A stretch of DNA of 64,000 nucleotides from Thermodesulfobacteriota bacterium (GCA_964291405.2 OZ219926.1:4736001-4800000); one strand, 5' to 3'. Counted from the first letter of the stretch, positions 30,830 to 40,546 are shown. Numbers and translations are program-made. The notes: generated by a model not told the origin, from the letters alone.

Positions 30830-31693
30830 CTATTCTTGCAAAGGACCAAAAAACTCCCGGGCTTGGGCAATCACAAAATCCGGCTTTTCTTCCGCAATAA
30901 AGTGCCCGCACTCTTCGACCTGGCCGCCTTCGACGTTGTCTGCCACGCCTTGCCAGATCGGCACAAGATTACCCAGAAAGGTCTGGCCGCCCCAGGCTCG
31001 GACCGGCATCTTGAGTTTTTCCGTGCATGAACTCAGGTTCTCCAGATCTTCATTGATGCCCGTGCGGTAATACTGGAACCCGGCGCGCAGCGCCCCCGGT
31101 GCGGAATAGACCCGGACGTATTCAGCCACATCCTCGTCTGTGAACACCTTTGGGCTGTAATTGTACACGGTCGAATTATAGAAATGCCGTAAATAAGTTT
31201 CGACATTATTGCTGACCAGCTTTTCGGCCAGGTCGGGCATGCCGGCGTGAAAGAAGACGTGCCACAGCCGCTGGGCAACCCCGATGTCCATCTTTTCGCC
31301 CTTGCGACCCAGACCCGGAATCATATCCAGGATCATCAGTCGCTCGACCATTTCCGGGTGATCGTAAGCCAGATAGTAGGTGACCGCGCCACCCCAGTCA
31401 TGGCCGGTCAGGCCGATTTTCTCAAAGCCGAGTGATTTAACGAGTTCATATACATCCGAGGCCAAGGTGCGTTTGTCATAGCCGCTCAGCGGGCGCTCGG
31501 AATCTCCCAAGCCTCGCAAGTCGGGTGTGATGACCGTGAACTGCTCCGACAACGGGCCGATGATCTTGTGCCACTCATAGCTGCTCTGCGGCCAGCCGTG
31601 AACAAAAACCAGGGGGTAGCCTGATCCGGCAATCACATAGTGCATCCGAAAGCCGTTGACCGTTGCCACATGATGGGTGCCTGTGTCTGTCAT
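30830..31693 (-). CDS. Alpha/beta hydrolase (epoxide hydrolase-like)
   Basis: HGWP, GHDWGG, catalytic His in CGHF; AAGGAG RBS before ATG 31693. Confidence 0.88.
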   Translation of the reverse strand: MTDTGTHHVATVNGFRMHYVIAGSGYPLVFVHGWPQSSYEWHKIIGPLSEQFTVITPDLRGLGDSERPLSGYDKRTLASDVYELVKSLGFEKIGLTGHDWGGAVTYYLAYDHPEMVERLMILDMIPGLGRKGEKMDIGVAQRLWHVFFHAGMPDLAEKLVSNNVETYLRHFYNSTVYNYSPKVFTDEDVAEYVRVYSAPGALRAGFQYYRTGINEDLENLSSCTEKLKMPVRAWGGQTFLGNLVPIWQGVADNVEGGQVEECGHFIAEEKPDFVIAQAREFFGPLQE

Positions 31694-31793
31694 ACTTGTA
31701 CTCCTTTTATTCCTGTTTTGTATCCGAAGCCCGGAACGGACAGCAAGAGGAGTGGGGCTGCTGCTGTCCGTTCCGTGTGATAATTGGTGAGCT

Positions 31794-32828
31794 ATGGAGA
31801 CGCCGGTTTTTCTGCGCGCCTGCCGGGGAGAGCCAACCCCGTACACCCCCGTCTGGCTCATGCGACAGGCCGGGCGGTACATGGCCGAATACCGGGCGTT
31901 GCGCGAACGCGTGCCTTTTCTCGAATTGTGCAAGACGCCTGACCTGGCCGCACAGGTAACGCTTGAAGCGGTTGAACGCCTGGGTGTGGATGCTGCCATT
32001 CTCTTTTCGGATATACTCCTCATTGTTGAACCCATGGGCGTTGGACTGGAATTTTCTGCAGGTGACGGTCCTGTGATTCATCGCCCGGTTCGTTCGGGCC
32101 AAGATATTGGCGCTCTACGTGAGGCGCTGCCCGAAGAATCCGTCCCCTTTGTATTTGAAACAGTCCGCAAGATCCGCAGCAGCTTGCCCAGCCATATCCC
32201 TCTGATCGGCTTCTCGGGCGCGCCCTTCACCCTGGCGTCGTATTTGATTGAGGGCGGCGCATCACGTCAGTATCTGGAAACCAAGCGCCTCATGTATCAG
32301 GACTCCGGGGCCTGGAACGCGCTGATGGATCAATTGGTGCGTGCTATCACCGCCTATGTAAATGCTCAGATTACGGCCGGTGCGCAGGCCATTCAGCTCT
32401 TCGATTCCTGGGTTGGCTGTCTGGCCCCCCAGGACTATCGAACCTTTTTGTTACCCCATATGCAGACGCTCATCCAAGGAGTGACGCCGGGTGTTCCCCT
32501 CATTCATTTCGGCACGGGCACGGCCGGCATTCTGGAACTGCTGGCCGAAGCGGGTGGGGATGTGATTGGGGTGGACTGGCGAACCGATCTTGATGTGGCC
32601 TGGGAGCGGATCGGTGCAGACCGAGCCGTCCAGGGCAATCTTGATCCATTGGCTCTTTTTGCTCCTCTGGATACCTTACGCCAACAGGTGCAACGTATTC
32701 TGGATCAGGCCAGGGGCAGAGAGGGCCATATTTTCAACCTGGGACACGGCATTGTACCACAAACTCCGGTGGATAATGTGATTGCGCTGGTCGATATGGT
32801 GCACGAATTTTCGAGTCGGACAGGGTGA
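31794..32828 (+). CDS. hemE: Uroporphyrinogen decarboxylase
   Basis: PVWLMRQAGRY, FSDIL, GAPFTLASY, FNLGHG. Confidence 0.97.
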   Translation: METPVFLRACRGEPTPYTPVWLMRQAGRYMAEYRALRERVPFLELCKTPDLAAQVTLEAVERLGVDAAILFSDILLIVEPMGVGLEFSAGDGPVIHRPVRSGQDIGALREALPEESVPFVFETVRKIRSSLPSHIPLIGFSGAPFTLASYLIEGGASRQYLETKRLMYQDSGAWNALMDQLVRAITAYVNAQITAGAQAIQLFDSWVGCLAPQDYRTFLLPHMQTLIQGVTPGVPLIHFGTGTAGILELLAEAGGDVIGVDWRTDLDVAWERIGADRAVQGNLDPLALFAPLDTLRQQVQRILDQARGREGHIFNLGHGIVPQTPVDNVIALVDMVHEFSSRTG

Positions 32829-32870: not shown

Positions 32871-33796
32871 ATGCAATACGACGCCGTTCTTTTGATTGCC
32901 TTTGGCGGGCCGGAAAAAATGGATGACGTGCGGCCCTTTTTGGCGAATGTCCTGCGCGGTCGTCCCGTACCGCCGGCCCGACTGCAAGAAGTTGTCCGAC
33001 ACTACGAGGTGTTTGACGGTCGCTCGCCCTTGAACGAGATTACCTTTCGTCAAGCGGAAGCAGTCCGACGCTATCTGGCCCAAGAAGGTCAGTCGCTGCC
33101 GGTATATGTCGGCATGCGGAACTGGCATCCCTATATAGCCGAGACCCTGGAACAGATGGGGCGGGACGGAGTGAAAAACACCGTTGGCTTCATTCTCTCC
33201 GCTCAGCAGAGCGAGGCCGGCTGGGAGCGGTATAAGATGAATGTGGCAGAGGCCAGAGAAAGGGTGGGGCCGCTCGCGCCCCAGGTGAGCTTTACCGCTG
33301 GCTGGTATAATCACCCCTTATTCATTCAGGCGGTGGCCGATTTGACGAAACAAGCGTTCTTCGTCTCTTCCGGCGGACCGTCGTGGGGCGGACTCCTCTG
33401 GTCTATACCGCCCATAGTGTGCCGACCTCCATGCCGAGCAGCCGGGAATACGTCCGACAGGTCGAAGAGGGCGCGCGTCTGGTCGCAGCGTGCATTGGGC
33501 ACAAAAACTGGTCGGTAGCCTATCAGAGTCGGAGCGGCCCGCCCCAGATGCCGTGGCTGGAGCCGGATATAGGCGATGTGCTCAAGGAGCTTGCCGCTCA
33601 GGGGGTGTACGATGTCGTCGTCGTGCCCATCGGCTTTGTGTGTGACCACATCGAGGTCCTGTACGATCTGGATACGGAGGCGAGGGGGATTGCCGAAAGG
33701 AACGGCCTGAATATGATCCGTGCCCGGACGGTCAACGCGCATCCACACTTTATTCGGATGATCGCCGAGGTGGTCCGAGCGACCCTGAATCAATAG
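32871..33796 (+). CDS. hemH: Ferrochelatase, split by a frameshift near 33355-33390
   Basis: FGGPE, GMRNWHP in ORF 32871; TAHSVP, YQSRSG...WLEPD, GFVCDHIEVLYDLD in ORF 33383. Confidence 0.9.
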
Positions 33797-35823: not shown

Positions 35824-36036
35824 GGCCCTAATTCAAGATCATCAGTCATACCGTTACTGCGCTGTCAAGTGGAAGATAGGCGTATCCGAAAACAACACGA
35901 CTGCTTACATAGGTTGGCCTCGTGTGCCGACACTCGAACTCTCTCCCTTTATCTTTACTTAACGTTTACTTGAGTAGTCGGGGAGGGGTTGCTATGGTGC
36001 TGCCTTACTGTCGGTAATGGAGAGGGGTTGGGGCAA

Positions 36037-36801
36037 GTGATTCGGGTATTCCCCCGCATTGAGAACGCCAGGCTCATGGACCTGTTTCGGAAGGGCGTTG
36101 AGGGGCAGTGGTCAGCGGCCGAAATTGACTGGACGCAGCCGTTGTCGCTCGGTCGTCACGAACAGCGCGCTTTGGCCATGGTGCTGACTCCGATCTATCT
36201 GGGTGAGCAAACGGCCATGATTGGGGCCAGCTCGACCATCCCGCAGTGTTTCGCCGCCCATGAGACCGAAGCCCAACTCTATCTCTCCACCTTTCTTTTG
36301 GACGAAGCCCGCCATTTCGAGACCTTGACCCGCTTCTATAACACCCTGAACCAGCGTCCGCTCGAAGTCCGTCAGCTCAAAGATATGTTCCGCTATCAGG
36401 CGCGCCTGTTCAAATCACGGGATCGGATTGAATGGCTGTGGGGGATACTGCTCAGCGATATTCTGGCCCGCCATTTCTACAGCATCCTGGCGAAGGCCCA
36501 CCCCACCTCTCTCTTCGCCTCCATCGCGAATCGCATCTTACGCGACGAGGCCCGCCATCTGGCATTTGCCGAACTCTATCTCCGTGCCGTGTTGGAACGT
36601 GAACCGCAGTTCGGTCCGGTCTTTCTCAAGATGCGAGACGAACTACTCCGGCTGATGGAGGCGATGTATGAGGCCCTGAAAGCCGAGGCGCTGCTGATCG
36701 GCATTGATGGGCAGACTTTGTTCGGGAAGGTAAGGCGGGACATTGAGAACAAGGCCCGGCGGCTTCACCTCCCCGAAGCAGAAAGCCCGACAGAAGAATG
36801 A
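36037..36801 (+). CDS. Ferritin-like di-iron carboxylate protein (R2lox/AurF-like)
   Basis: QW....IDW, GE, DEARH, SD..A, DEARH ligand pattern. Confidence 0.8.
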   Translation: MIRVFPRIENARLMDLFRKGVEGQWSAAEIDWTQPLSLGRHEQRALAMVLTPIYLGEQTAMIGASSTIPQCFAAHETEAQLYLSTFLLDEARHFETLTRFYNTLNQRPLEVRQLKDMFRYQARLFKSRDRIEWLWGILLSDILARHFYSILAKAHPTSLFASIANRILRDEARHLAFAELYLRAVLEREPQFGPVFLKMRDELLRLMEAMYEALKAEALLIGIDGQTLFGKVRRDIENKARRLHLPEAESPTEE

Positions 36802-38102
36802 GTCGGCCGTCCCCGCCTGCTAAAAATGCCTCCGCTGTGCGTTTCCCCCGTTGGCCGCGAGGCAATACGCCCCAATGGATTGCCGAGCGCCAGGAACGCC
36901 TGCGGACACTGACCCACTGGGATGCTGAATATCAGCACGTGTTAGACGGCCAACTCGATGCGCTGACCCCCTTCCAGGAATGTCTGACCGGTCAGATGAC
37001 GCTGCCCGTTGGGGTCGTTGGCCCGCTGAGGCTGAACTGGGGCCAGTACGAACTCGACCGGCAGGGACAACTGTACGAGCGCGGCCGACAAGAAGATCAG
37101 GTTTTCGTGCCTCTGGCCCATACTGAAGGCGGACTCTCGGCATCGATTCAACGCGGAGTGACTGCCGTGGCACTTGCCGGGGGCGTCCGCACCTATGTGC
37201 TGGCCGACCGGATCACCCGAGACTCGTGCTTTGTGTTCTCTTCTACGCAAGAGGCGCTCAGTCTGGCTGATTGGGTCGCGGCGCATGCCGAGGATATGGC
37301 CACCTGGCTCAAAGACGCCGCCCATCCCTCGCTCTCGGATCATTTGCTCAGCCGCCATGCGGTGCTGCACGAGGTGCAGACCCATGTGGTCGGCCCCATG
37401 TGCCACGTCCTATACCGTTTCACGACCGGTGACGCCTGCGGGCCCAATATGATGACGCGCAACGCCTATGCGCTCAACCATGCCTATATTAGCGAACGCT
37501 TCGCAGCCGAGTCCGGCATCAGGCCGCTGCGTGTATTTCTCGAAGCCAATATGGGAGGCGATAAAAAACCGAGTCATGCCTTTTTTCAGTTTCCGGGGCA
37601 CGGCAAGGTTGTCCATGCCGAAATCACCCTGCCCAACGCGGTTTTGCGGCGAGTCCTGCGCGTTGAGGCTACGGACATCCTCGCCCTGGAACATGCCGGA
37701 CTTCACGGCGCGCACGCGAGTGGCATGCAGTCTTTTGCCTTTACTCCAGCCTCAGCCATTGCGGCTATTTTTGCCGCCACTGGCCAGGACCTGGGCATGG
37801 TTGGAACCAGCAGCATGGCGCAGGTCACGGTTAGTCCGGTTAGTGACGGTCTGCACCTCTCCATTCGGTTTGCCGGCTTAGAGGTGGGTACGCTCGGGGG
37901 GGGGACGAGCCTGCCGCACGCACGCTCGTATCTGCAACTGATGGACTGCTGGGGAGAGGGCAAGGTGTACCGGTTTGCCCAAATCATTGCGGCAACCGCC
38001 CTGTGCCTCGAACTCTCAGCCTCGGCCAGTATGGCCGCGGAGGGGAGCCGGAATTTTCTGCAAGCCCACCTTGAGCGCGGCGGACTGCGAGCGAACGAGT
38101 AA
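36798..38102 (+). CDS. Class I HMG-CoA-reductase-fold oxidoreductase (divergent)
   Basis: PVGVVGPL, PLAHTEGGL.AS, TGDACGPNM, DKKP, ATGQD, EVGTLGGGT, ELS...H. Confidence 0.85.
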   Translation: MSRPSPPAKNASAVRFPRWPRGNTPQWIAERQERLRTLTHWDAEYQHVLDGQLDALTPFQECLTGQMTLPVGVVGPLRLNWGQYELDRQGQLYERGRQEDQVFVPLAHTEGGLSASIQRGVTAVALAGGVRTYVLADRITRDSCFVFSSTQEALSLADWVAAHAEDMATWLKDAAHPSLSDHLLSRHAVLHEVQTHVVGPMCHVLYRFTTGDACGPNMMTRNAYALNHAYISERFAAESGIRPLRVFLEANMGGDKKPSHAFFQFPGHGKVVHAEITLPNAVLRRVLRVEATDILALEHAGLHGAHASGMQSFAFTPASAIAAIFAATGQDLGMVGTSSMAQVTVSPVSDGLHLSIRFAGLEVGTLGGGTSLPHARSYLQLMDCWGEGKVYRFAQIIAATALCLELSASASMAAEGSRNFLQAHLERGGLRANE

Positions 38103-38116
38103 AGACGAGAAGCCGG

Positions 38117-39022
38117 ATGCCCACGGCCCGCCTTATTGTCAACCCGACCTCGGGGGGAGGACGGGGGGCGAGGATTGCTCGCCAAGCCAGCCTGGAACTA
38201 CAACGGCGTGGATGCCCACACGAAGTGCTGTATAGCAGCGCGCCAGCTGCCCCCGCTGCGCTGGCCGCTCAGGCAGTTCGGGATGGCTGCACCCTGGTGG
38301 TCGGCCTGGGCGGCGACGGCTTGATCCATGCGGTTGCAAACAGCCTGGTCGGGACGCCGGCGACGCTGGGCATTGTTCCGGCCGGGCGCGGAAACGATAT
38401 TGCGCGCGGCCTGGATATTCCGTTGCGTCTGACCGAGGCGTGTGAGTTGATCGCGCAATATGGCGCGCACGCTGCCCAGTCCGTCCCCCGTATTGATGTT
38501 GGGCAGGCGCATGAGCGCTATTTCTTGTCGGTGGCGTTGGTCGGTTTGGCGGCAGAGATTAACCGTCGCTCAAACCTGATGGGCCGCTTTCGCTTTAACG
38601 CCGTGTATTCGGCATTGACCGTTCTGTCCGTCTTCCTTTCCGCGCCACGGACGTTCACGATTCGTTGCGACGGTCATGAGCAGCGCTGCTATAGCTGGCT
38701 GATTGCCGTCGGTAACGCGTGGAGTTCAGGACGGGGCATGCAACTCGTGCCCGGAGCTCGGGTTGATGACGGTGTCCTGGACGCCTGTGTGGTACATGGG
38801 ATGGGTAAATGGGAACTCCTGCTGCGGGCCTTCCCGCGCGTCTTTAGTGGCACCCACGTCTATCTGACCGGGATCGAGAGTTTGCGTGGGAGAGAAATGG
38901 TTATCCGTTCGGAGACTCCAGGGGATATTTACGCCGACGGTGAACGCCTGGGCTCCCTGCCGGTGACGTTGCGAGCGGTTCCCCAGGCCCTATCAGTCAT
39001 TCGTCCCGCCCGAAATCGCTAG
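38117..39022 (+). CDS. Diacylglycerol/lipid kinase family protein
   Basis: IVNPTSGGG, GGDG, PAGRGNDIAR, P.A..DDG.LD, ADGE. Confidence 0.9.
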   Translation: MPTARLIVNPTSGGGRGARIARQASLELQRRGCPHEVLYSSAPAAPAALAAQAVRDGCTLVVGLGGDGLIHAVANSLVGTPATLGIVPAGRGNDIARGLDIPLRLTEACELIAQYGAHAAQSVPRIDVGQAHERYFLSVALVGLAAEINRRSNLMGRFRFNAVYSALTVLSVFLSAPRTFTIRCDGHEQRCYSWLIAVGNAWSSGRGMQLVPGARVDDGVLDACVVHGMGKWELLLRAFPRVFSGTHVYLTGIESLRGREMVIRSETPGDIYADGERLGSLPVTLRAVPQALSVIRPARNR

Positions 39023-39096: not shown

Positions 39097-39873
39097 ATGG
39101 CCTTTCAGGAAGAGTTTCTTGATATCCGTGGCAAGAATATCCAAATGCTCAGCGGCGGGAATGGGGACCCGCTCCTGTATCTCCATAGTGCGGGCGGCGA
39201 GGTGGCTTGGCTGCCTTTTTTCGAGCAACTCGCGCAACATTATACTGTGTATGTGCCCGGCCATCCGGGTTTTAGCCGCTCTGAGGGCTTGGATCAGATC
39301 GATACTATAGAAGACTTGGTTTTTCACTATACAGATTTGATGGACCATATCGGGCTCGACCAGCCCTATGTGGCCGGTCTCTCGCTCGGGGGCTGGCTGG
39401 CCGCCGAACTGGCAACGCGCTATAGCAATCGTCTGAAAAAGTTGGCCCTGATCAACCCTGCCGGGCTGCGCGTGCCCGGCTCTCCCATGGCCGATATTTT
39501 TGCGGCAGACCCACAGGAAACGCGCCGTTTAGTCTTCCATACGCCGGAGTCGGAGCTCGCCAGGAGCTTTATCCCGGATGACCCACCCCAAGAGGTCCTG
39601 GAAAACGCCTTACGCGCCCGCGAAGCCACGGCCCGTGTAGGCTGGAATCCCTATCTCTGCAATCCAAAACTGCGCAGCCGGCTGTACCGGGTGACCGTCC
39701 CAACCCTGATTGTCTGGGGCGAGTCCGACCAATTGATTCCGCTCGCCCACGGGCATGCCTATCATGAGGGGATTGAAGGTTCACAGCTTGCCATGATTTC
39801 CGACTGCGGCCACGCACCGCCGTTTGAAAAACCCGAAGAAACCGTGACGCATTTAACCGGGTTTTTTCAGTAG
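39097..39873 (+). CDS. Alpha/beta hydrolase
   Basis: HPGF..S, GLSLGG, WGESD, CGH. Confidence 0.88.
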   Translation: MAFQEEFLDIRGKNIQMLSGGNGDPLLYLHSAGGEVAWLPFFEQLAQHYTVYVPGHPGFSRSEGLDQIDTIEDLVFHYTDLMDHIGLDQPYVAGLSLGGWLAAELATRYSNRLKKLALINPAGLRVPGSPMADIFAADPQETRRLVFHTPESELARSFIPDDPPQEVLENALRAREATARVGWNPYLCNPKLRSRLYRVTVPTLIVWGESDQLIPLAHGHAYHEGIEGSQLAMISDCGHAPPFEKPEETVTHLTGFFQ

Positions 39874-39895: not shown

Positions 39896-40546
39896 ATGGA
39901 CCAGCGTTTGACCCCGGACATGTTCGAGCGCCTCGACGAGAACGACGATGCGCTCTTTTATACGCTGCCGCGTAAACTGGTGCATATCGATGATGGAGCG
40001 ATTGCCGCCGCCGGCCAATGTATGGCCCAGACGTTTGCGCCGGACGGTGTCCTCCTGGATCTCATGAGCAGTTGGCGTACGCATCTGCCCGAAGGGTTTG
40101 TGAAGCAAAAATGCATCGGACTCGGGCTGAACGCCGAGGAGATGGCGGATAACCCGGACCTGGATGAATATATTGTTCACAACCTCAACGTCGATCCGCA
40201 GCTCCCCTTTGCTGACGCCTCCTTTGATGGGGTGGTTGTCACCGTCTCGATTCAATACATGATCCAACCGGTTGAAGTTTTTGCTGAAGTGAATCGGATA
40301 TTGAAGCCCGGCTGTCCCTTTCTGGTGCTCTACTCCAACCGCATGTTTCCAACCAAAGCCATCCGCCTGTGGCATATGTTGAGAGATAAGGGTCGGGCCG
40401 AGTTGATTACCGCCTATTTCCAGCAGGCCGGCGGCTACGAGGCCGCGACCTTTGAGGACTGGAGTCCCAATCCGGGCGGCTCTGATCCCATGTTTGCCGT
40501 CTATGCGCGCAAGCAAAACACCCCAGAAACACCGGGCACACGATAG
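39896..40546 (+). CDS. SAM-dependent methyltransferase-like protein
   Basis: DD..FY..PR..VHIDD, LDLMSSW, LP..D.SFD, SNRMFPTKA. Confidence 0.85.
   Translation: MDQRLTPDMFERLDENDDALFYTLPRKLVHIDDGAIAAAGQCMAQTFAPDGVLLDLMSSWRTHLPEGFVKQKCIGLGLNAEEMADNPDLDEYIVHNLNVDPQLPFADASFDGVVVTVSIQYMIQPVEVFAEVNRILKPGCPFLVLYSNRMFPTKAIRLWHMLRDKGRAELITAYFQQAGGYEAATFEDWSPNPGGSDPMFAVYARKQNTPETPGTR

Follow-up and report, generated by a model that had tools for sequence, protein, structure and literature searches.

What would an enzyme with the fold of 3-hydroxy-3-methylglutaryl-CoA (HMG-CoA) reductase (HMGR) do in an operon, between a ferritin-like di-metal protein and a soluble lipid kinase? The question is raised by three co-oriented and tightly linked genes at positions 36037-39022 of a 64,000-nucleotide stretch (GCA_964291405.2 OZ219926.1:4736001-4800000, hereafter the window) from the genome of an uncultured Binatia bacterium (4.95 Mb, 97.5% complete). 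An earlier note on the window had described three tightly linked genes with an ATGA overlap and a 14-bp gap, and this layout is read directly in the sequence: the ATGA at 36798-36801 is the overlap of the di-metal and reductase genes, and 14 nt separate the TAA stop of the reductase (38100-38102) from the ATG of the kinase (38117). The operon is considered here, at about even chances, to reduce a long-chain acyl thioester to an alcohol, to modify the chain with O2 and to phosphorylate the product for a lipid. The three genes would serve a lipid-alcohol branch of fatty-acid metabolism and not mevalonate. By its signature residues the reductase is of a type already published in 2025 as FcrA (PMC11948995) and the enzyme itself is no longer new; the module of reductase, di-metal protein and kinase remains undescribed in the literature searched.

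The reductase matched HMG-CoA_red (PF00368) with 264.8 bits (cut-off 27). It was aligned to human HMGR (1dq8) and to HMGR of Methanothermococcus thermolithotrophicus (6hr7), together with a column table of our own. The human numbering used here is presumed from the offset of the printed alignment and from the customary positions. The catalytic residues are kept as E110 (Glu559), K256 (Lys691), D331 (Asp767) and H424 (His866), all invariant in the 15 aligned members, and R141 (Arg590) and D255-K257 (Asp690-Lys691-Lys692) are also kept. The motifs listed in the earlier note were all found, both those of class I enzymes (TEG with E110, GGDKKP with D255, K256 and K257, GQD with D331, VGTLGGGT and the C-terminal AH with H424) and the variant ones (QSFAFTPAS, LEHAGLHGA and DACGPN, the last in place of DAMGMN). 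The variant motifs are not chance, since all 15 aligned members, from two phyla, have them unchanged. In the substrate pocket, HMG-binding Ser684 is replaced by Glu249 and Leu862 by Phe420, both invariant across the family. Lys735 is replaced by Ala300, where the family shows A, V, I, S or L and the alignment is less certain, and Asn750/His752/Asn755 are replaced by Ala314/Thr316/Ser319 within AFTPAS (314-319). The protein thus resembles class I HMGR in fold, NADPH-type motifs, catalytic tetrad and C-terminal His helix, but it lacks the HMG-binding residues and the pathway partners and falls below the equivalog model of NADPH-dependent HMGR (TIGR00533, 188 bits, cut-off 441.8).

FcrA, a homologue of class I HMGR, is reported to be NADPH-dependent and to make fatty alcohols from acyl-CoA with chains of at least C14 (Grossi et al. 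2025, PMC11948995). As reported there, HMG-CoA and free aldehyde are not reduced, simvastatin is no inhibitor and the bacterial hosts are without the mevalonate pathway; the assayed enzyme is that of Ca. Promineifilum breve, and Natronomonas pharaonis is the second named source. FcrA keeps the four catalytic residues and has Glu at Ser684, a small residue at a position printed as 'Lys795' and a bulky residue at Leu862; by the N. pharaonis offsets of the paper, 'Lys795' corresponds to position 735. All four residue features and the absence of a mevalonate pathway were found for the reductase of the window: a class I HMGR fold with Glu, Lys, Asp and His kept, Ser684 changed to Glu, Lys735 to a small residue and Leu862 to a bulky aromatic one, in a mevalonate-free host. 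The core proposal of the earlier note, that an HMGR-fold enzyme reduces an acyl-CoA other than HMG-CoA, is supported, as the pocket changes noted before, or their neighbours, are the ones by which the specificity of FcrA is explained in that paper. The reductase differs from published FcrA (PMC11948995) in having no N-terminal Lad or ACP domain, in the Ala/Thr/Ser replacing Asn750/His752/Asn755, in its separate long branch in an unrooted tree, and in its fixed partnering with the di-metal protein and, in Binatia, with the kinase. The terms 'kinase', 'di-iron', 'ferritin' and 'phosphotransferase' are absent from the main text of the FcrA paper.

The operon's reductase is the only PF00368 gene of the host genome. 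NAD_binding_4, taken as a model for other kinds of fatty acyl reductase, gave weak and unspecific matches only; it also matches in all 14 control genomes, and these matches carry no information. Whole-genome searches gave no match for the C domain of HMG-CoA synthase (PF08540), and the best scores for mevalonate kinase (TIGR00549, 20.6 bits, cut-off 163), diphosphomevalonate decarboxylase (TIGR01240, 23.3 bits, cut-off 171) and the archaeal-type HMG-CoA synthase model (148 bits, cut-off 353) were all below cut-off, while IspH is present (214.8 bits, cut-off 187.85). The absence of HMG-CoA synthase and mevalonate kinase, noted before for the neighbourhood, therefore holds for the whole of this 97.5% complete genome. 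As an alternative the earlier note had offered a variant mevalonate shunt, in which the reductase would be a genuine HMG-CoA reductase and the kinase a non-orthologous mevalonate kinase acting after it; the HMGR fold, the intact catalytic residues and the kinase next door would suit it. This shunt is extremely improbable and effectively excluded by the lost HMG carboxylate ligands with an acidic residue facing the pocket, by the genome searches and the IspH, and by the reported behaviour of FcrA, which bears the same changes and leaves HMG-CoA unreduced (PMC11948995). Two pairs of adjoining thiolase-like matches (G000:C3:1060041-1061812 and 4159036-4160934), which scored 148 and 132 bits with the archaeal HMG-CoA synthase model (cut-off 353), are probably thiolase/DUF35-type condensing enzymes and not HMG-CoA synthase. 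Despite the IspH, no DXS of the genome passes the cut-off of TIGR00204 (466 bits), the best match being a 618-aa frame with 138 bits (G000:C3:4499610-4500815); either the gene has diverged strongly or part of it escaped the loose first search.

The signature of the pocket extends to a subclade of close relatives. All 15 aligned members, from Binatia and Gaiellales, share SGMQSxAFTPA[ST], GDA[CV]G[PA]NM and EANMGGDKK, and common to them are also a C-terminal GSxNFxxAHxERGGxR and an N-terminal RWPRxN. Nearly all other FcrA-like sequences retain Asn755, which is Ser or Thr in the subclade. A FastTree phylogeny of 130 HMGR domains, effectively unrooted and including no characterised FcrA or canonical HMGR, placed the 22 'AFTPAS' rows in one monophyletic group (Shimodaira-Hasegawa-like support 99) with a small Acidimicrobiia clade as sister. 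Among the nearest full-length representatives from a library of 1.84 billion proteins, Asp or Glu stands at Ser684 in 94 of 99 and Phe or Trp at Leu862 in 96 of 99; most of 17 further fetched homologues show the same pattern. Six more HMGR-like genes from the phylum sample and loci from Vibrio, Verrucomicrobia and Planctomycetota nearly all have FcrA-type residues, the exceptions at 684 being L240 and L244, which keep Ser, and L242, which is gapped. No canonical HMGR was found near the reductase among the relatives compared. Within the RWPRxN segment (reductase residues 1-24, window 36798-36870), P20, R21 and N23 are invariant in Binatia and Gaiellales. One sequence first taken for haloarchaeal (P0268) was rejected as such and is gammaproteobacterial.

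The di-metal protein gave only sub-threshold Pfam matches, to AurF (25.3 bits) and to the small subunit of ribonucleotide reductase (23.0 bits). By phmmer, its closest solved relatives are R2-like ligand-binding oxidases (R2lox; 6f6c and 4hr0, E 1e-5). When its AlphaFold2 model (mean confidence score pLDDT 86) was compared by Foldseek, ranks 1 to 20 were all R2lox (E from 8e-7, template-modelling (TM) score 0.72-0.79), with ribonucleotide-reductase R2 and aldehyde-deformylating oxygenase (ADO) below them. The E/ExxH/D/ExxH ligand set proposed before is present, with six metal ligands intact: E57, E90-x-x-H93, D141 (beside S140) and E171-x-x-H174. In sequence, in fold and in its six-ligand di-metal site the protein is best matched by R2lox of Geobacillus kaustophilus (4hr0), M. 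tuberculosis (3ee4) and Sulfolobus (7qbk), but identity is about 18%, the third-helix ligand is Asp and not Glu, and all NCBIfam R2lox models stay far below cut-off (best 37.5 bits, cut-off 194). The Val-Tyr ether cross-link pair of R2lox, which we take to be Val72/Tyr162 in GkR2loxI, is also absent, Ala60 and Trp135 standing at the aligned positions. On this sequence and model evidence the protein is best described as a putative R2lox-type oxidase in manner and not as a strict member of the family. R2lox proteins bind long-chain fatty acids. For GkR2loxI, alkane hydroxylase activity has been reported (PMC10867098).

Cyanobacteria likewise pair a thioester reductase, acyl-ACP reductase (AAR), with a ferritin-like di-iron enzyme, ADO, but their reductase has another fold and a two-electron product. 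In an AAR/ADO-like hydrocarbon route, the aldehyde would be passed to the di-metal protein and deformylated to an alkane or alkene, and the kinase would be an add-on of Binatia. This route has in its favour that the reductase/di-metal pair is the part kept across phyla, with or without the kinase, and that an ADO appears among the structural matches (4rc5, TM on target 0.76, rank 46) and, faintly, among the sequence matches (5k52, E 0.9). It is nevertheless very unlikely. The catalytic residues needed for the two hydride transfers are all present here, and FcrA is reported to yield the alcohol with no use of free aldehyde (PMC11948995). R2lox ranks far above ADO, which is a distant match only, and a dedicated kinase implies an alcohol product.

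The kinase contains DAGK_cat (PF00781, 87.8 bits) and YegS_C (PF19279, 119.7 bits), the architecture of the soluble lipid kinases DgkB, YegS and Rv2252, and its nearest solved relatives are 4wer (E 2e-18) and DgkB (2qv7, E 6e-18). It differs from them in staying below every curated NCBIfam cut-off, TIGR00147 being narrowly missed (112.7 against 118.65), and in having an orthologue confined to reductase-bearing genomes. This confinement suggests that the kinase may have a special substrate. Coupling of such a reductase to a kinase is also seen outside the subclade. Many relatives just outside it are 640-1500 aa long, and 63 of the 130 rows of the domain tree are proteins of at least 640 aa. Six long relatives were scanned and five contain a kinase domain: in P0144, P0149, P0150 and P0190 an APH/EcKL kinase domain follows the HMGR domain with FcrA signature, and P0184 has the order adenylation domain, carrier domain, HMGR domain, APH/EcKL kinase. 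The sixth, P0148, gave no second domain at E<=1e-5. The named fusion members are labelled 'phosphotransferase' and come from metagenome-assembled genomes (MAGs) of Spirochaetota and Bacteroidia. The fusions resemble the operon in joining an FcrA-signature reductase to a kinase, there in one chain, but their kinase fold is unrelated and Asn755 is kept. Since an unrelated kinase fold is coupled to the same reductase type, the analogy argues that phosphorylating the alcohol product would be a real and repeated solution.

The substrate may also be no long-chain lipid. The reductase would then act on an acyl-CoA that is shorter, or functionalised as a hydroxy, amino or branched one, and the kinase on a small alcohol. 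Such a substrate would fit the long branch of the subclade and, in comparison with assayed FcrA, its own loss of Asn750/His752/Asn755 and its DACGPN motif. It would also fit the small pockets modelled for 12 of 59 putative FcrA by Grossi et al. (PMC11948995). AurF, the top though sub-threshold Pfam match of the di-metal protein, is moreover an arylamine N-oxygenase family. A small substrate is still considered improbable, as the kinase is of the DgkB/YegS lipid-kinase family and the solved proteins nearest to the di-metal protein are binders of long-chain fatty acids. Glu at Ser684 combined with Phe at Leu862 is, in addition, reported as a long-chain signature (PMC11948995).

The functional linkage of the three genes, implied by the pathway proposed before, had conservation of the neighbourhood as its check. 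Among 44 Binatia-type loci, the di-metal gene lies on the same strand and at most 75 nt upstream of the reductase in 42 of the 43 with room, and 36 of these 42 pairs overlap by at least 4 bases; of the other two loci, one stops 14 bases ahead of the reductase and one (L055, family f85) truly lacks the gene. The kinase lies on the same strand, at most 256 nt downstream of the reductase, in 42 of 42 loci with room, the remaining two ending 106 and 164 bases past the reductase. In 36 Gaiellales-type loci, with reductases 55-61% identical to that of the window, the Binatia di-metal and kinase queries gave no match. A 270-aa ferritin-like homologue (20-25% identity, pairwise E 4e-6) stands within 1.2 kb of the reductase in 30 of the 35 loci with room, and in 25 loci the two genes are divergent and at most 250 nt apart. 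Searching with the di-metal alignment brought in two loci of Bacillota-labelled MAGs, where reductase (55-59%) and di-metal gene (46-49%) share a strand, the reductase coming first by 271 to 934 bp; the longer gap, in L133, holds a 278-aa opposite-strand open reading frame (ORF) with no Pfam match. The di-metal/reductase pair is found under three phylum labels (Binatia, Gaiellales and Bacillota MAGs), a context that supports the linkage. In L063 (894-5974) and other Gaiellales loci, minus-strand gatB-gatA-gatC, folD and then the ferritin-like gene form a conserved run upstream of the reductase. In both Bacillota-labelled loci a Cof-type HAD phosphatase comes directly after the pair (L133:6120-6989 and L134:6179-7057), on the side where the kinase stands in Binatia, and topA also follows the pair.

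The phyletic pattern was taken from a class sample of 251 genomes; the tallies exclude the window's own genome, and the genomes are kin, so that the counts are not independent. Four genomes marked unpublished and belonging to reductase-free families (G282, G378, G403 and G408) are within the tallies for the di-metal protein, wax-ester synthase (WS/DGAT) and hydrolase. The reductase occurs in all 35 genomes of family f1 and in the single one of the sister family f85, and in none of the other 214 bar two 35%-identical homologues. A di-metal orthologue (at least 67% identity) was found in 34 of 35 f1 genomes, always adjoining the reductase; it was not found in f85, and the other 214 genomes gave only paralogues of at most 34% identity. 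The kinase orthologue (E<=1e-45) was found in 35 of 36 reductase-bearing genomes (34 of 35 in f1 and the single f85 genome) and in none of the other 214, a restriction that lends the linkage further support by context. The single f1 miss, for di-metal protein and kinase alike, coincides with a contig end, the reductase being at the contig end in the case of the kinase.

The operon could also hold an ordinary FcrA that supplies fatty alcohols to the wax-ester synthases of the genome, with neighbours that are accessory or unrelated. Two WS/DGAT genes are present in the host genome (PF03007, 192.9 and 160.3 bits), and FcrA was found through wax-ester synthesis (PMC11948995). The two genes lie about 177 kb and about 522 kb from the operon. 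WS/DGAT occurs in 189 of the 251 class genomes, 162 of which have it without the reductase, and of the 36 genomes that bear the reductase, 10 gave no WS/DGAT match at E<=1e-25, although several of these 10 are 93-97% complete. As WS/DGAT does not track the reductase, wax-ester supply is a weaker rival and is considered unlikely; it also leaves the conserved di-metal partner and the restricted kinase unexplained, and fcrA is reported to occur often without WS/DGAT (PMC11948995).

Several points weigh against the proposed lipid-alcohol operon. The reductase assignment for the subclade is a prediction from sequence, and membership of the FcrA clade was drawn from signature residues because the tree had no characterised FcrA or canonical HMGR. 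The subclade and its sister stand on a 0.74 branch (SH-like support 100) opposite the other 106 FcrA-like rows. Because of this long branch and of the replaced Asn750/His752/Asn755, the substrate or product could differ from those of published FcrA. The partnership with the di-metal protein has gaps: it is missing beside the reductase in the f85 locus and in 5 of 35 Gaiellales loci, each with 6 kb of room (one further locus is cut), the one locus of the Acidimicrobiia sister clade (L096) has neither di-metal nor kinase neighbour, and seven other Bacillota-labelled di-metal loci have no reductase within the 5 kb flank. The kinase does not adjoin the pair in Gaiellales or Bacillota loci. Its co-occurrence with the reductase is confined to one Binatia order and may partly be shared descent. 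What is left of the probability falls to neighbours that are unrelated.

For the lipid-alcohol operon itself the following course is proposed. The first step is well supported: an FcrA-type NADPH reductase would convert a long-chain acyl thioester, most likely an acyl-CoA, through a bound aldehyde to the primary alcohol by means of the Glu, Lys, Asp and His residues. The translationally coupled R2lox-like protein would act with O2 on the alkyl chain of the substrate or product, as a hydroxylase or a desaturase, and the DgkB/YegS-type kinase would phosphorylate the resulting lipid alcohol, which could be a fatty alcohol or a long-chain diol, either of them perhaps acylated. The end product would be an alkyl or diol phosphate feeding a polar lipid. 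We infer what the oxidase does, which alcohol the kinase takes, in which order the steps run and what is finally made; the FcrA chemistry is as reported in PMC11948995. A bolder version, considered unlikely, would make the operon a source of a glycerol-free phospholipid precursor. The acyl chain would first receive a hydroxyl group, at C2 for example, from the R2lox-like protein; reduction of the hydroxyacyl-CoA by the FcrA-like enzyme would give a long-chain diol, and the DgkB-like kinase would phosphorylate it. If true, this route would contain the first 'fatty alcohol/diol kinase', would give an R2lox-type oxidase its first physiological role and would supply a genetic basis for long-chain-diol or alkyl-phosphate lipids.

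In the literature searched, FcrA is covered only by the 2025 paper (PMC11948995), and neither a fatty alcohol kinase nor HMGR-type genes of Binatota or Gaiellales are the subject of any paper found; nothing relevant turned up on HMGR together with ferritin-like proteins. FcrA-type enzymes were recognised only in 2025. The locus adds a distinct FcrA-like subclade with an O2-activating di-metal protein as its fixed partner and, in one lineage, a dedicated lipid kinase as well. Together with the kinase-fused relatives in other phyla, the subclade suggests that bacteria may commonly turn acyl-CoA into a phosphorylated alcohol. Orphan R2lox-like oxidases gain a concrete and testable metabolic context, and the genes are small and their products soluble, which makes the hypothesis directly testable in E. 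coli.

The features of the locus are collected in Table 1. The start of the di-metal gene is placed at the GTG, with a TTG at 35989 as alternative. A scan for promoters and terminators gave sites no commoner than in shuffles. Four RNA libraries from three studies with sponge or coral metagenome labels contain contigs over pieces of all three genes at 90-100% likeness, and one contig (36737-37018) bridges the junction at 36798; this is only a hint of expression, as DNA carry-over is possible, and uncovered parts carry no meaning.

Table 1. Features of the operon and its downstream neighbours, in window coordinates.
Feature	Position	Strand	Basis or remark
Shine-Dalgarno-like GGAGAGGGG	36019..36027	+	Read in sequence; 9 nt ahead of the GTG of the di-metal gene
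R2lox-like ferritin-fold di-metal protein, 254 aa	36037..36801	+	ORF; homologues share the MIRVFPR start
HMGR-fold thioester reductase with FcrA signature, 434 aa	36798..38102	+	ORF, Pfam, residue alignment
DgkB/YegS-type soluble lipid kinase, 301 aa	38117..39022	+	PF00781 and PF19279
Alpha/beta hydrolase, 74 nt 3' of the kinase	39097..39873	+	Pfam Abhydrolase_1/6; membership doubtful
S-adenosylmethionine-dependent methyltransferase	39896..40546	+	Pfam Methyltransf_11

The hydrolase follows the kinase in many, not all, Binatia loci. It is probably outside the module, because homologues with 54-63% identity are present in Binatia families without the reductase. The methyltransferase is syntenic in most Binatia loci, and so are the RNase HII gene and the E2 gene of pyruvate dehydrogenase further on; in the window, RNase HII and pyruvate-dehydrogenase genes stand past the methyltransferase, and haem genes stand upstream of the operon. 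Among the upstream genes the ferrochelatase is split in two overlapping plus-strand frames (window 32871-33796), of which 32871-33518 covers Pfam positions 2-174 and 33383-33796 covers 184-315. The split is a frameshift, from a pseudogene or an assembly error. On the minus strand, a 401-aa frame (30830-32035) encodes an alpha/beta hydrolase with an epoxide-hydrolase N-terminal match, and its first ~115 residues resemble an over-extended start.

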